Below are positions 549-49,359 of a stretch of DNA of 64,000 nucleotides, piece after piece. Under the pieces are notes generated by a model, which was not told the DNA's origin, searched no databases, and worked only from the letters and a program-made list of their open reading frames with translations. The stretch's first letter is position 1. The number at the start of each line of letters is the position of its first letter. Location of the stretch: assembly GCF_013315695.1 (NCBI RefSeq), contig NZ_CP054353.1; one strand, written 5' to 3'. The position numbers were made by a program, and so were the translations under genes. Source of the DNA: Escherichia coli. GTDB taxonomy: Bacteria > Pseudomonadota > Gammaproteobacteria > Enterobacterales > Enterobacteriaceae.

Positions 549-1475
<927 letters not shown>

Positions 1476-11193: not shown

Positions 11194-11930
11194 TGTTTTT
11201 TGGACTCCCTCATTATAATTACTGGTATTAACCAGCATGTGTAATCCCGGATTGGGACCCTGCACAGGCTCGGAGACTTTCTGCTGTCAGGTTACTTTAT
11301 CGTTACGTATTACTATCACCGACTTTATTAATTCTGGTGATTCAGACGATCACCTTATGTCGATTCGTACTGTGTCTCCCCTGTCGAGACACATTATTCT
11401 TTCGCGACGATCTTTAATTGTTAATTATTCTCATTACCAATAAAGAATCGCCTTGCGGTTGCCCGGAAAGTACCAAATGCGGTTCTTACTCGCCAATACA
11501 TTTTGCAAAATTGTTAAGCAATTCTCTTTTATTGACCGTATCAGAATCTATAGCTTGCATCCATGCCTTAACAAACATCTTTCAATTCAATCAAATAGAG
11601 GTTGGTTAAGCATGTCTCTCTTTTCTGATTACAGTTCCAGTAGTGAAATGCACAATAATTTAACAATTGATTATTATTTAGCACTTTCCTCTGCCAAAGG
11701 CAGTGGAATTACTAATATCATTTCAATTATTCTTCAGCAAGCCCAGGATTATGATGTGGCGAAAATAACATGATGGTGAGGAGAAGCAGTTGAGGAAATC
11801 CTTATAACTAACTGTAATTTGAGAAGAATATTTTTACCTACTCCTTTTGCTTTTGATAACTGCGCAGGAACAAAGTAAAAATAATGACGAAGTAAACGGA
11901 GCATGGCAGCTCCGTTTCAATTGAAAGGAA

Positions 11931-13054: not shown

Positions 13055-15730
13055 ATGGCTGTTACTAATGTCGCTGAACTTAACGCACTCGTAGAGCGTG
13101 TAAAAAAAGCCCAGCGTGAATATGCCAGTTTCACTCAAGAGCAAGTAGACAAAATCTTCCGCGCCGCCGCTCTGGCTGCTGCAGATGCTCGAATCCCACT
13201 CGCGAAAATGGCCGTTGCCGAATCCGGCATGGGTATCGTCGAAGATAAAGTGATCAAAAACCACTTTGCTTCTGAATATATCTACAACGCTTATAAAGAT
13301 GAAAAAACCTGTGGTGTTCTGTCTGAAGACGACACTTTTGGTACCATCACTATCGCTGAACCCATCGGTATTATTTGCGGTATCGTTCCGACCACTAACC
13401 CGACTTCAACTGCTATCTTCAAATCGCTGATCAGCCTGAAGACCCGTAACGCCATTATCTTCTCCCCGCACCCGCGTGCAAAAGATGCAACCAACAAAGC
13501 GGCTGATATCGTTCTGCAGGCTGCTATCGCTGCCGGTGCTCCGAAAGATCTGATCGGCTGGATCGATCAACCTTCGGTTGAACTGTCTAACGCACTGATG
13601 CACCACCCAGACATCAACCTGATCCTCGCGACTGGTGGTCCGGGCATGGTTAAAGCCGCATACAGCTCCGGTAAACCAGCTATCGGCGTAGGCGCGGGCA
13701 ACACTCCGGTTGTTATCGATGAAACTGCTGATATCAAACGTGCAGTTGCATCTGTACTGATGTCCAAAACCTTCGACAACGGCGTAATCTGTGCTTCTGA
13801 ACAGTCTGTTGTTGTTGTTGACTCTGTTTATGACGCAGTACGTGAACGTTTCGCAACCCACGGCGGCTATCTGTTGCAGGGTAAAGAGCTGAAAGCTGTT
13901 CAGGACGTTATCCTGAAAAACGGTGCGCTGAACGCAGCTATCGTTGGTCAGCCAGCCTATAAAATTGCTGAACTGGCAGGCTTCTCTGTACCAGAAAACA
14001 CCAAGATTCTGATCGGTGAAGTGACCGTTGTTGATGAAAGCGAACCGTTCGCACATGAAAAACTGTCCCCAACTCTGGCAATGTACCGCGCTAAAGATTT
14101 CGAAGACGCGGTAGAAAAAGCAGAGAAACTGGTTGCTATGGGCGGTATCGGTCATACCTCTTGCCTGTACACTGACCAGGATAACCAACCGGCTCGCGTT
14201 TCTTACTTCGGTCAGAAAATGAAAACGGCTCGTATCCTGATTAACACCCCGGCTTCTCAGGGTGGTATCGGTGACCTGTATAACTTCAAACTCGCACCTT
14301 CCCTGACTCTGGGTTGTGGTTCCTGGGGTGGTAACTCCATCTCTGAAAACGTTGGTCCGAAACACCTGATCAACAAGAAAACCGTTGCTAAGCGAGCTGA
14401 AAACATGTTGTGGCACAAACTTCCGAAATCTATCTACTTCCGCCGTGGCTCCCTGCCAATCGCGCTGGATGAAGTGATTACTGATGGCCACAAACGTGCG
14501 CTCATCGTGACTGACCGCTTCCTGTTTAACAATGGTTATGCTGATCAGATCACTTCCGTACTGAAAGCAGCAGGCGTTGAAACTGAAGTCTTCTTCGAAG
14601 TAGAAGCTGACCCGACCCTGAGCATCGTTCGTAAAGGTGCAGAACTGGCAAACTCCTTCAAACCAGACGTGATTATCGCGCTGGGTGGTGGTTCCCCGAT
14701 GGACGCCGCGAAGATCATGTGGGTTATGTACGAACATCCGGAAACTCACTTCGAAGAGCTGGCGCTGCGCTTTATGGATATCCGTAAACGTATCTACAAG
14801 TTCCCGAAAATGGGCGTGAAAGCGAAAATGATCGCTGTCACCACCACTTCTGGTACAGGTTCTGAAGTCACTCCGTTTGCGGTTGTAACTGACGACGCTA
14901 CTGGTCAGAAATATCCGCTGGCAGACTATGCGCTGACCCCGGATATGGCGATTGTCGATGCCAATCTGGTTATGGACATGCCGAAGTCCCTGTGTGCTTT
15001 CGGTGGTCTGGACGCAGTAACTCACGCCATGGAAGCTTATGTTTCTGTACTGGCATCTGAGTTCTCTGATGGTCAGGCTCTGCAGGCGCTGAAACTGCTG
15101 AAAGAATATCTGCCAGCGTCCTACCACGAAGGATCTAAAAATCCGGTAGCGCGTGAACGTGTTCACAGTGCAGCAACTATCGCGGGTATCGCGTTTGCGA
15201 ACGCCTTCCTGGGTGTATGTCACTCAATGGCGCACAAACTGGGTTCCCAGTTCCATATTCCGCACGGTCTGGCAAACGCCCTGCTGATTTGTAACGTTAT
15301 TCGCTACAACGCGAACGACAACCCGACCAAGCAGACTGCATTCAGCCAGTATGACCGTCCGCAGGCTCGCCGTCGTTATGCTGAAATTGCTGACCACCTG
15401 GGTCTGAGCGCACCGGGCGACCGTACTGCTGCTAAGATCGAGAAACTGCTGGCATGGCTGGAAACGCTGAAAGCTGAACTGGGTATTCCGAAATCTATCC
15501 GTGAAGCTGGCGTTCAGGAAGCAGACTTCCTGGCGAATGTGGATAAACTGTCTGAAGATGCATTCGATGACCAGTGCACCGGCGCTAACCCGCGTTACCC
15601 ACTGATCTCCGAGCTGAAACAGATTCTGCTGGATACCTACTACGGTCGTGATTATGTAGAAGGTGAAACTGCAGCGAAAAAAGAAGCCGCTCCGGCTAAA
15701 GCTGAGAAAAAAGCGAAGAAATCCGCTTAA
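13055..15730 (+). CDS. adhE: bifunctional aldehyde/alcohol dehydrogenase AdhE
   Basis: 891 aa; N-terminal aldehyde dehydrogenase and C-terminal iron-type alcohol dehydrogenase domains; C-terminal [19 protein letters not shown] tail. Confidence 0.95.
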
Positions 15731-15759
15731 TCAGTAGCGCTGTCTGGCAACATAAACGG

Positions 15760-15771
15760 TCCCTTCTGGGG
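15760..15771. repeat. IS4 target-site duplication, left copy (TCCCTTCTGGGG)
   Basis: 12-bp direct repeat immediately outside the IS4 left end; identical copy at 17198..17209. Confidence 0.8.
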
Positions 15772-17197
15772 TAATGCCAGTCAGTTAAGCAACTGACTGG
15801 CTCTTTTTCGGGGCTGTGGGGTATTTCCAGGGCCTCTCCTTTACCACTCTCGGGAAGGCCCTTTCCCTTCTTGTCGGTAATTTCACAAGTTGTCCCATAC
15901 TTGCAAGATCGCGCATCAGCTCCGGTATACGTCCCGGTGAAGCGCCCTGCAATGTCATCAGCATTCTCATCACCATTCCGCATGATTCTGAGAAACTCAG
16001 TTGATTCGGCCAGTAACCTTTCAGATGTTCCGCCATTTTAATCATCTGATATCTCACCAGATTATAAGCCAGTAAGACACCCCACAGCTCTTGCTCCACA
16101 AGCTCCGGTTTTTTACTTCTCAGCGTCAGCCTGCTCAGTTGCATCGTCTGTTTTATCTCCCTGTATCCCAGTTCGATTTCCCAGCGATGACTGTACAGAT
16201 CCGCCATTTCTCCTCCGGGGAAGCGCATGGCGTCCGTCATCGACGTCAGCAGATGGCAGACTTTTCCTTTGCGCGTCACGGTCAGCAGGCGGGCTGTCAC
16301 TTCATTTCCCAGTCCCGGCCACTTTTTTCGTGCCTGCGGGCTGGTTTTCAGCTTCACCAGATGATCGCCTTTACCCAGTTTTCTGATCTCTTCATATTGC
16401 GCTCCCTTTCTGAGAGGTATCATCCAGTGGCGGTGTTCTCCCGCCAGGCTCCAGGCATTTAACAGTCCCAGTGAGTAATAACCTTTATCCATTAACGTCA
16501 GAGTGTTATCGCCGGTTTGTTCTATAAGTTGCTCAGCAAGCTCATTTTCGCTGTTCTTCATCGTGCCGAAGGCTGCAGCCGTCAGCAGATGGCTGGTCAG
16601 TTCCATCTGGCAGACCATTTTGACCTGCGGGTAGAGCGCCGGGTTCCCGGCATGTGTCTGGCGGGGGAAGGCTGCATCGTTCTCTGGTGTATCCGGTGTG
16701 CGCCAGAACACACCATCGATGGCCAGCAGGGTCAGGCCGCACCAGTGCGGATGCGGCGTGGCGTTATGCCAGAGCTGCGCTGTTTTCGTGAACACGCGGC
16801 GGACAGCCTCACTTCCCAGGCGCTGGCGGGCCTGAATAACGGCACTGGGGGCAACGAAGGGGCGATTGCCCGGCAGCATGATGTCCAGGCGATTCACAAT
16901 CTGGTGAAGAGGTTCTTTACGCTCAAGCGCCATGCCAACAATACACCAGACCATCATTTCGAGGGGAAGACGGCGCTTGCGTAGCGTTACAGTACCTGAT
17001 TCGGCAAGGCAACGAGAGATGAGTTCGGGGTCGAGGTAATCCCCCAGAGAAGTCAGTGGGTTACGCAGAGAATCGTAACGGGATACCAGATCAAGAGCCT
17101 GTCCAATGTGCATAAAAAAATCCGGAAACAAGTGAGCGTTTCCGGATTCTTACACAGCCACTGGATCGGTCAACTGATCCTTAACTGATCGGCATTA
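15772..17197 (-). mobile_element. IS4 insertion sequence, complete (1426 bp)
   Basis: Imperfect terminal inverted repeats TAATGCC(A/G)(G/A)TCAGTTAAG at both ends, intact transposase, perfect 12-bp target duplication; length matches IS4. Confidence 0.85.
15785..17113 (-). CDS. insG: IS4 transposase
   Basis: ORF 15785..17131; start at [10 protein letters not shown] gives 442 aa; recalled as the IS4 InsG sequence. Confidence 0.85.
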
Positions 17198-17209
17198 TCC
17201 CTTCTGGGG
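17198..17209. repeat. IS4 target-site duplication, right copy (TCCCTTCTGGGG)
   Basis: Identical 12-mer abutting the IS4 right end, followed by CCGTTTTTTT. Confidence 0.8.
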
Positions 17210-17470
17210 CCGTTTTTTTGTTTTACCCAAAGCAACTTTCCCATAAACCGACAGCATTTGCCTTCATCATATTTACGGCGATGTATAACGCCTACACACA
17301 GCGATATTGTACTTTACAGGTTACAAGTCAACGTCACTGTAAAAGCGCTCTGTGAGGGGTATAGTGGCGTTAAAGAACTGTCGAGAAGGGTATATACACC
17401 GGATGAAGTGAGTAAAACGAACTGACAGGATAAAAGCGCCCTGCTCACCCTGTCAGTAAAGAAATTCTTA

Positions 17471-18088
17471 TTAATCGTGGCGATGCCTTTCCTGAATAGC
17501 CGTTAATGAGCCGACTTCTAACGCTTCTTTATAGTGTTTACGGCATACAGAAACGTAGCGTTCATTACCACCAATAACCACCTGCTCACCTTCGTTATAA
17601 GGTCTGCCTGCTTGATCAAGACGCAGCACCATGCTTGCTTTGCGGCCACAAAAACAGATGGTTTTTAATTCAACCAGTTTGTCGGACCATGCCAGTAAGT
17701 ATTGGCTGCCAATAAATAACTCACCTCGAAAATCGGTACGTAAACCATAACAAAGTACGGGTATATCGAGTTGATCGACAACCTCCGATAATTCATATAC
17801 TTGTTGTCTGGTTAAAAACTGGCATTCATCAACCAGTACGCAATGAATTGCCTGCTGTTCATGTTCCGCACGAATCTCATCAAATAATGATGAATTTTGG
17901 TTAAATAATTTTGCAGGCGATGACAAACCTATACGCGAGCTGACTTTCCCGGCACCAAAGCGATCATCAATTTCTGCCGTATATACGACAGTGCGCATGC
18001 CGCGTTCCTGGTAATTGTATGAAGATTGCAACAATGCTGTAGACTTACCCGCATTCATTGCGGAATAGTAGAAATATAGCTGTGCCAT
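17471..18088 (-). CDS. tdk: thymidine kinase
   Basis: 205 aa; P-loop GAMNAGKST; C-terminal zinc-binding cysteines. Confidence 0.92.
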
Positions 18089-19105: not shown

Positions 19106-19133
19106 TCTTTTGTAGATTGCACTTGCTTAAAAA

Positions 19134-19157
19134 TCCCGCCATCGGCGGGATTTTTTA
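19134..19157 (+). terminator. hns intrinsic terminator
   Basis: Hairpin TCCCGCC-atcg-GCGGGA followed by TTTTTT, 29 bp after the hns stop. Confidence 0.7.
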
Positions 19158-23992: not shown

Positions 23993-24076
<84 letters not shown>

Positions 24077-24110
24077 TCTCAAGCATTACCTCAAAATTTG
24101 AATTACCCTT

Positions 24111-24195
<85 letters not shown>

Positions 24196-40163: not shown

Positions 40164-40698
40164 ACTGCAACAGCTGTTGAAAAGCCGGAATGTACTCTTT
40201 ATTGCAAACATTTCAGGGATGAAGTGAAGATGAATTGAGACGTAGTATCCACACCAAGCCGGCGTTATCCGGTGAGGCGCAATGTTGCGGGGGCTTTATC
40301 CCTGGTGGCATTGGTTGCTGGAAAGAGAAAACCCCCGCACGTTGAGAGGTACAACCTGACAACAGAACGGGGGCTAATCTTGAACCACAACAATTCAAGA
40401 ATAGCCGCAAAATGTTGTCCTTACAACAAGGCGGCTATATGACGCTCGCGCAGTTTGCCATGATTTTCTGGCACGATCTGGCAGCACCGATCCTGGCGGG
40501 AATTATTACCGCAGTGATTGTCAGCTGGTGGCGTAACCGGAAGTAAGGTGAAAACGGGCGTCAGGCTGCCGTGATGGCAATATGCGCCCGAAACCGGCCG
40601 CAGGGGTAACAGCCTGCGGCCCTTTTTGTCTTTATCTCTTCTGCAAGTAAATATTGGCAACCCGAGCTGGAAGCATCATCCAGAGCACTCATGAAACG
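40164..40698 (+). repeat. LDR (long direct repeat) unit 1, ldr/rdl type I toxin-antitoxin locus
   Basis: 535-bp unit nearly identical to 40699..~41166 (a few SNPs); contains the ldr ORF and its terminator. Unit boundaries approximate. Confidence 0.8.
40439..40546 (+). CDS. ldr: Ldr small toxic peptide (35 aa), type I toxin
   Basis: Encodes MTLAQFAMIFWHDLAAPILAGIITAVIVSWWRNRK; below the length cut-off of the ORF track; followed by hairpin plus T-run terminator (40596..40627). Confidence 0.85.
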   Translation: MTLAQFAMIFWHDLAAPILAGIITAVIVSWWRNRK

Positions 40699-41166
40699 AC
40701 TGTAACAGCTGTTGAAAAACCGGAATGCACTCTTCATTGCAAACATTTCAGGGATGAAGTGAAGATGAATTGAGACGTAGTATCCACACCAAGCCGGCGT
40801 TATCCGGTGAGGCGCAATGTTGCGGGGGCTTTATCCCTGGTGGCATTGGTTGCTGGAAAGAGAAAACCCCCGCACGTTGAGAGGTACAACCTGACAACAG
40901 AACGGGGGCTAATCTTGAACCACAACAATTCAAGAATAGCCGCAAAATGTTGTCCTTACAACAAGGCGGCTATATGACGCTCGCGCAGTTTGCCATGATT
41001 TTCTGGCACGATCTGGCAGCACCGATCCTGGCGGGAATTATTACCGCAGTGATTGTCAGCTGGTGGCGTAACCGGAAGTAAGGTGAAAACGGGCGTCAGG
41101 CTGCCGTGATGGCAATATGCGCCCGAAACCGGCCGCAGGGGTAATAGCCTGCGGCCTTTTTTGTAT
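40699..41166 (+). repeat. LDR unit 2, ldr/rdl type I toxin-antitoxin locus
   Basis: Second tandem copy; ends just past the terminator hairpin (41131..41162), where sequence diverges towards kdsA. Confidence 0.8.
40974..41081 (+). CDS. ldr: Ldr small toxic peptide (35 aa), second copy
   Basis: Identical 35-aa peptide to the first copy, 535 bp downstream. Confidence 0.85.
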   Translation: MTLAQFAMIFWHDLAAPILAGIITAVIVSWWRNRK

Positions 41167-49320: not shown

Positions 49321-49337
49321 TCGAACCCGGCTCAAAG

Positions 49338-49359
49338 ACCCGCTGCGGCGGGTTTTTTT
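49338..49359 (+). terminator. prs intrinsic terminator
   Basis: GC-rich hairpin (CCCGCTGCGGCGGG) followed by TTTTTTT directly after the prs stop. Confidence 0.65.

Follow-up and report, generated by a model that had tools for sequence, protein, structure and literature searches.

The window analysed here, a stretch of 64,000 nucleotides from Escherichia coli (contig NZ_CP054353.1), carries a complete IS4 that splits the terminator between the convergent genes adhE and tdk. This arrangement very probably arose through an ordinary cut-and-paste insertion of IS4 into a preferred target, the adhE/tdk terminator, with hairpins borne by the element replacing the lost one and leaving the insertion near neutral. 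The location of the insertion is dictated by the target preference of IS4, and the terminator that it occupies is a species-wide hotspot for IS4-type elements.

Structure of the locus and identity of the element

The features of the locus are listed below in window coordinates, with the basis of each assignment in brackets.

13055..15730, plus strand: adhE coding sequence, 891 aa (open reading frame list; adhE annotation in the near-identical genome MSB1_4I)
15754..15771, plus strand: left half of the split adhE/tdk terminator, AAACGG + TCCCTTCTGGGG (reading, repeat search, script; natural empty allele)
15772..17197, minus strand: complete IS4, 1426 bp (repeat search, script, genome comparison)
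15776..15808, plus strand: terminator-like element facing adhE (consensus scan; folding, -18.7 kcal/mol, z = -5.4)
15785..17113, minus strand: IS4 transposase, 442 aa from ATG, without internal stop (open reading frame list, profile search, comparison with K-12 InsG)
17114..17151, minus strand: hairpin AAGAATCCGGAAAC / GTTTCCGGATTTTT + U7, immediately upstream of the transposase AUG (inverted repeat; folding)
17146..17173, minus strand: candidate transposase promoter TTGACC-16-AAGAAT, extended TG (consensus scan only)
17198..17219, plus strand: right copy of the target duplication, TCCCTTCTGGGG (17198-17209), and terminator right arm with T-run, GGGGCCGTTTTTTT (17206-17219) (reading, repeat search, script)
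17471..18088, minus strand: tdk, 205 aa, convergent with adhE and in the same direction as the IS4 transposase (open reading frame list and annotation)

By direct reading and by script, the TAA stop codon of adhE was located at 15728-15730, 23 nt ahead of the first A of the terminator stem. The left copy of the target duplication TCCCTTCTGGGG occupies 15760-15771 and is preceded by AAACGG from 15754, while CCGTTTTTTT directly follows the right copy and reaches 17219. In a repeat search, the 12-mers formed an exact direct repeat at a spacing of 1438 nt, and the probability that an exact 12-mer would abut both IS4 ends by chance is about 4^-12. When the element and one 12-mer were taken out, the sequence became AAACGGTCCC-TTCT-GGGGCCGTTTTTTT, which folds into a 10-bp stem with a 4-nt loop and U7 (-16.4 kcal/mol, z = -5.4) and thus displays the G+C-rich stem-loop, the immediate U-run and the position after a stop codon that characterize an intrinsic (Rho-independent) terminator. 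The orphan left arm, in contrast, reached only -4.6 kcal/mol. This empty allele also exists in nature: strain 7/2 carries ...AACATAAACGGTCCCTTCTGGGGCCGTTTTTTTGTTTTACCC... between adhE and tdk, exactly as reconstructed, and 2200 of the 5426 complete E. coli genomes are empty at this site. The first-pass annotation had predicted that removal of the element would restore a textbook terminator and had proposed a comparison with genomes lacking the insertion as well as folding of the flanks, and on each of these points it was borne out. Its placement of the terminator after the adhE stop was right, whereas the distance of 25 bp should read 23 nt; likewise, the terminator is indeed split, but not within the loop alone, the duplicated segment comprising the loop together with the top four stem pairs.

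The element itself showed all of the tested defining features of IS4. Its ends, TAATGCCAGTCAGTTAAG and TAATGCCGATCAGTTAAG, are imperfect 18-bp inverted repeats (15772-15789 and 17180-17197, 16 of 18 positions matching) that start with TAATGCC as IS4 requires, and the 12-bp duplication lies within the 11-13 bp range of IS4 (10-13 bp for the IS4 subgroup; PMC2266710). The transposase scored 304.5 bits against the NCBIfam profile NF033592 (cut-off 115), covering profile positions 3-332 of 332, and carries the Y-(2)-R-(3)-E-(6)-K (YREK) signature at residue 307; profile and signature together identify it as the single-ORF DDE transposase of the IS4 family. RefSeq starts the same protein at a TTG at 17131, giving 448 aa. 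At the nucleotide level, the copy was 100% identical to many copies annotated as 'IS4-like element IS4 family transposase' and identical to that of IAI39 over 1426 of 1426 positions. A search for further IS4 ends in the window returned two, both belonging to this single copy. The complete 1426-bp IS4 with its 12-bp target duplication, as first described, was therefore confirmed by the coordinates, the exact 12-mers and the near-identity to IS4, and so was the integrity of the transposase frame (442 aa, uninterrupted) and of both ends. In this orientation it is tdk, and not adhE, that points sense-wise into the transposase gene.

Among the 5426 complete E. coli genomes, 2686 contain IS4 matches, the median number of places per genome being one. 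The closest relatives of the window (MSB1_4I, OZ547117, MS 21-1, OZ546925 and OZ546911; 99.9-100% identical over 15 kb) each carry IS4 at 12-18 places, as against that median of one, which fits recent IS4 activity in the lineage of the window. Considering the intact reading frame and ends, the commonest sequence variant and the IS4-rich nearest genomes, it is reasonable to regard this copy as potentially active. In mutation-accumulation lines of K-12, the IS4 transposition rate was low, with 8 new insertions, and ISZ gave none (PMC5009759).

An Rfam scan of the whole window returned no RNA family in 15500-17500. Elsewhere it gave a match to the sRNA isrC (145 bits, 619-741, plus strand) inside the reading frame 587-1465, which is annotated as an IS3-family transposase in MSB1_4I and adjoins prophage remnants (tail-fibre and DinI-like genes). 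Two identical matches to the antitoxin RNA rdlD (40326-40391 and 40861-40926, minus strand), 535 bp apart, correspond to tandem Ldr/Rdl type I toxin-antitoxin repeats. In addition, two tandem tRNA genes, tRNA-Tyr in the MSB1_4I annotation, lie downstream of purU at 23993-24192 (plus strand).

IS4-borne hairpins and the fate of flanking transcripts

Four bases inside the left end of IS4, a hairpin facing adhE was identified that gave the best terminator-like site of the region in the consensus scan. It consists of a perfect 11-bp stem (15776-15786 / 15791-15801) with a 4-nt loop followed by TCTTTTT, that is, GCCAGTCAGTT-AAGC-AACTGACTGGC and then TCTTTTTC, and the stop codon of the transposase gene sits at its loop edge. 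With a stable stem-loop and a U-rich tract (tail UCUUUUUC, 6 U in the next 8 bases) that ends 78 nt past the adhE stop, 15776-15808 has the hallmarks of an intrinsic terminator, and its folding energy of -18.7 kcal/mol, compared with -16.4 kcal/mol for the lost terminator, makes it at least as strong as the latter. The transcripts of adhE would accordingly be expected to stop at 15776-15808, and, judged from the position of the U-tract, they probably end about 78 nt past the stop codon, which would extend the native 3' UTR by about 30 nt.

The reading that competes best with this one, although we consider it unlikely, is that loss of the terminator abolishes adhE termination, the anaerobically abundant adhE transcripts then entering IS4 antisense to the transposase gene; if so, the adhE 3' UTR would be lengthened and the transposase silenced by antisense transcription. 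The destruction of the original hairpin speaks for such read-through, as do the orphan left arm, which folds no better than shuffled sequences, and the consensus scan, which found no other terminator-like site between the stop codon and 15772. The U-tract of the IS4 hairpin is moreover imperfect, and the UCUUUUUC tail, less long and less continuous than the original U7, is a point against termination within IS4. Some longer folds also pair the orphan left arm with 15810-15815, a pairing that could compete with the IS4 hairpin, which itself recurs in the longer folds. Against read-through stand the stronger hairpin lying only 4 nt inside the element and the presence of an IS4-type element, including old decayed copies, at this site in about 59% of complete genomes, which argues against a costly effect on adhE. 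The proposal of read-through made in the first-pass annotation is thus weakened, and it is probably wrong or describes a minor effect.

At the other end of the element, another hairpin faces tdk: AAGAATCCGGAAAC-GCTCACTT-GTTTCCGGAT followed by U7 (-23.3 kcal/mol, z = -6.9). The -10 element of the candidate transposase promoter overlaps the 5' arm of this hairpin, and a transcript from 17140 was predicted to be unstructured. These predictions suggest that the hairpin would form only in transcripts arriving from outside, as a self-protection against tdk read-through, which would then stop at 17151-17114, ahead of the transposase AUG. The inward-facing hairpins just inside each IS4 end would probably thereby replace the split terminator functionally. 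As termination would be replaced at both ends, the insertion may be near neutral for its neighbours and the transposase gene shielded from outside transcription.

Target choice and occupancy of the adhE/tdk terminator

To define the sequence recognized by IS4, the target was reconstructed at 13 independent sites, namely, that of the window and 12 from other genomes and K-12. The duplications measured 11-13 bp at these sites. In 9-10 of the 13, the duplication was preceded, at about 3 nt, by the end of an A-run and followed, at 3 nt, by the start of a T-run, and the inner AAA...TTT spacing of the sites in this register was mostly 18-19 bp. The adhE site is exactly in register (AAA-CGG-[TCCCTTCTGGGG]-CCG-TTTTTTT). 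Given a background of 8.5e-4 per position for AAA-N18/19-TTT in the restored window, the occurrence of 9 sites in register among 13 corresponds to a binomial P of about 1e-25. Only one arm matched at three sites (ygeA, PTS-IID and NCTC86), so that the rule is a preference and not absolute.

Most of the 13 sites lie at gene 3' ends, three between convergent genes (feaB/tynA, degS/mdh and treF/yhjB) and three between codirectional genes (yihL/typA, raiA/bamD and ycaL/aroA). The repeated occurrence of IS4 in bidirectional intrinsic terminators follows from the shape of a terminator, which is itself an A-run/T-run target. At a site within the php gene, both the A and T arms were retained without any hairpin, which suggests that IS4 recognizes the arms rather than an RNA-type structure. 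The transposase would thus pick a roughly symmetric site, in which about 18-19 bp separate an A-run from a T-run, and make staggered cuts 11-13 bp apart centred between both runs. Three further AAA-hairpin-TTT sites that fit the rule lie unoccupied in the window, at 11894-11917, 19129-19153 and 49334-49358; the first is located after ychE, another is the terminator shared by the convergent genes hns and galU, and the third is situated further downstream.

Junction searches against the 5426 complete E. coli genomes, in which a site was counted as 'empty' when 80% or more of the reconstructed sequence was matched, distinguished four states of the adhE/tdk terminator, which sum to 5412 genomes.

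Empty: 2200 genomes
IS4 oriented as in the window: 189 genomes
IS4 or its remnants in the opposite orientation: 1138 genomes
ISZ (the K-12 insZ remnant): 1885 genomes

An IS4-type element hence occupies this hairpin in about 59% of complete E. coli genomes, K-12 included. The degS/mdh terminator, by comparison, carries IS4 in only 12 genomes, being free of it in IAI39, CE10 and also MSB1_4I; set against the high occupancy at adhE, this points to recurrence together with old, vertically inherited copies at the latter. The flanks of the degS/mdh spacer (MS 21-1, L017) fell into two identity classes across the 12 genomes, 100% and 99.0-99.3%, which hints at recurrent IS4 insertions there, too.

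The occupied alleles at adhE/tdk differ from one another. The window allele has a 12-bp duplication, with the transposase gene antisense to adhE, while the ST648 allele shares its orientation and carries an 11-bp duplication, CCCTTCTGGGG, and 2 private SNPs within the element. Three alleles have the opposite orientation: that of IAI39, with a 12-bp duplication and an IS4 identical to the window copy; that of CFSAN061763, with an 11-bp duplication and the K-12-type variant of IS4; and that of LF82, an old event, whose IS4 is 97.5% identical and has lost 270 bp internally and whose duplication is CCCCTTCTGGGG. An assignment of the LF82 element to ISZ was considered and rejected, as it is a true IS4 with the 270-bp deletion. 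The duplication that flanks ISZ in K-12, CCCTTCTGGG, measures 10 bp and has its centre at the same terminator dyad. Duplication length, orientation and the few SNPs in these six sequenced examples suggest about six separate insertions, although some of the 'separate' events might instead reflect a 1-bp indel or exchange between alleles by recombination. IS4 and the related ISZ-type element would accordingly have inserted into the terminator many times and in either orientation, and the window copy would be one such insertion in an IS4-rich, MSB1_4I / MS 21-1-like lineage, separate from the ST648-like 11-bp event.

The IAI39 allele bears on another reading, namely, that no fresh insertion took place and that an ancestral, oppositely oriented copy was inverted in place, or exchanged by allelic replacement, to give the orientation in the window. 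The two alleles share the flanking repeats and an IS4 identical at all 1426 positions, both lineages are IS4-rich (15 places in IAI39, 12-18 in the window lineage) and the flanks are fairly close, with 16 and 4 differences. With a symmetric target, however, independent insertions are expected in either orientation at the same cuts, and the shared IS4 sequence is uninformative, being the commonest variant in the species. Furthermore, a mechanism that would invert an element with 18-bp repeats and leave both flanks in place is not known, and the window flanks resemble those of IAI39 no more than those of ST648. We therefore judge inversion or replacement to be quite improbable. A chance origin of the flanking 12-mers, or an error of assembly, which would mean that the element had not truly inserted here, deserves practically no credence and is refuted by the exact 12-mers abutting both IS4 ends, the natural empty allele and the same junction in 189 independently assembled complete genomes.

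Returning to the ordinary insertion into a preferred target, the junction of the window stands annotated in 189 RefSeq genomes, with related occupants in about 3000 more, including K-12, and the adhE-tdk spacer constitutes a polymorphic four-state marker (empty, IS4 forward, IS4 reverse and ISZ) whose states partly track lineages (ST648-like, B2 and K-12-like). In work on adhE 3' ends or tdk expression, the K-12 arrangement should hence not be assumed. We put forward more tentatively, as an idea that may well prove wrong, that IS4 is a self-insulating, terminator-homing element, which recognizes A/T-run geometry and carries an inward terminator inside each end. Were this so, IS4 would restore termination for both neighbours wherever it lands while shielding its own transposase gene, and terminator homing would explain why adhE/tdk serves as a species-wide landing pad, about 59% occupied through roughly six insertions. 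The site offers a convenient natural test bed for two questions, the terminator activity of the IS4 ends and the recognition of A/T arms as opposed to DNA structure.

Comparison with known elements and targets

IS4 and its family are already known, as are the length of its duplication and its arm-specific choice of target. The IS4 of K-12 (insG, b4278; IS4 in ISfinder, the type element of the IS4 family) resembles the window copy in its length of 1426 bp, its identical 18-bp ends, its 442-aa transposase, its 12-bp duplication and its AAA...TTT target arms. Unlike the window copy, it resides at another chromosomal site, between yjgZ and nanX, and the two sequences agree at 1422 of 1426 nucleotides, with 2 amino acid differences in InsG; the window copy represents the WP_000483766-type sequence, which is commoner than the K-12 variant.

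The K-12 tdk-adhE spacer is instead occupied by ISZ (insZ pseudogene, b4573), which, like the window IS4, is seated on the dyad of the same terminator hairpin. Its ends are of the IS4 type, 33 of 35 end bases matching the transposase-start end of IS4, and it is classed as IS4-like. In contrast to the window copy, ISZ is internally deleted, frameshifted, oppositely oriented and inactive, its remnant lacking the catalytic C-terminal region. It is a different IS4-family element, the remnant being 31% identical to the IS4 transposase. Intact relatives of 1432 bp were found on IncF plasmids. Their transposase, of 445 aa, shares 39% identity with the IS4 protein, and duplications of 11 bp, situated in small hairpins, flank the elements. 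The corresponding coordinates are given below.

K-12 ISZ: L001, 1916-2906
IncF relatives: L021, 301-1732; L022, 301-1730

The possibility that ISZ is a decayed IS4 was rejected on the basis of an interior without DNA similarity, the 31% protein identity and the intact plasmid relatives. At the transposase-start end, the 33/35-bp identity contrasts with the distance between the ISZ-type and IS4 proteins.

As for the target, a literature search returned no relevant report on IS4 at adhE/tdk, the pheS attenuator, galT or intrinsic terminators. IS4 was reportedly found in the pheST attenuator by Mayaux et al. in 1984 (in Gene), with an AAA-N20-TTT consensus, and Klaer et al. are said to have described in 1981 repeated IS4 insertions at one galT site. 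These reported cases share with the 13 sites the A-run and T-run arms flanking an 11-13-bp duplication and the splitting of a terminator hairpin. The target pattern measured here thus agrees with the reported pheST consensus, the spacing being mostly 18-19 bp as compared with 20 in the latter.

With regard to the tdk-facing hairpin, the transposase genes of IS10 (Davis, Simons and Kleckner, in 1985) and IS50 (Krebs and Reznikoff, in 1986) are reportedly protected from outside transcription. The IS4 hairpin can be likened to the structures reported for these two elements in that it would form only in transcripts entering from outside, the element's own promoter starting within it, and in that the structure covers the ribosome-binding region before the transposase start, a likeness that for IS4 is predicted from its sequence. 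Unlike in IS10 and IS50, the IS4 hairpin with its U7 resembles a full terminator and not only a translational block.
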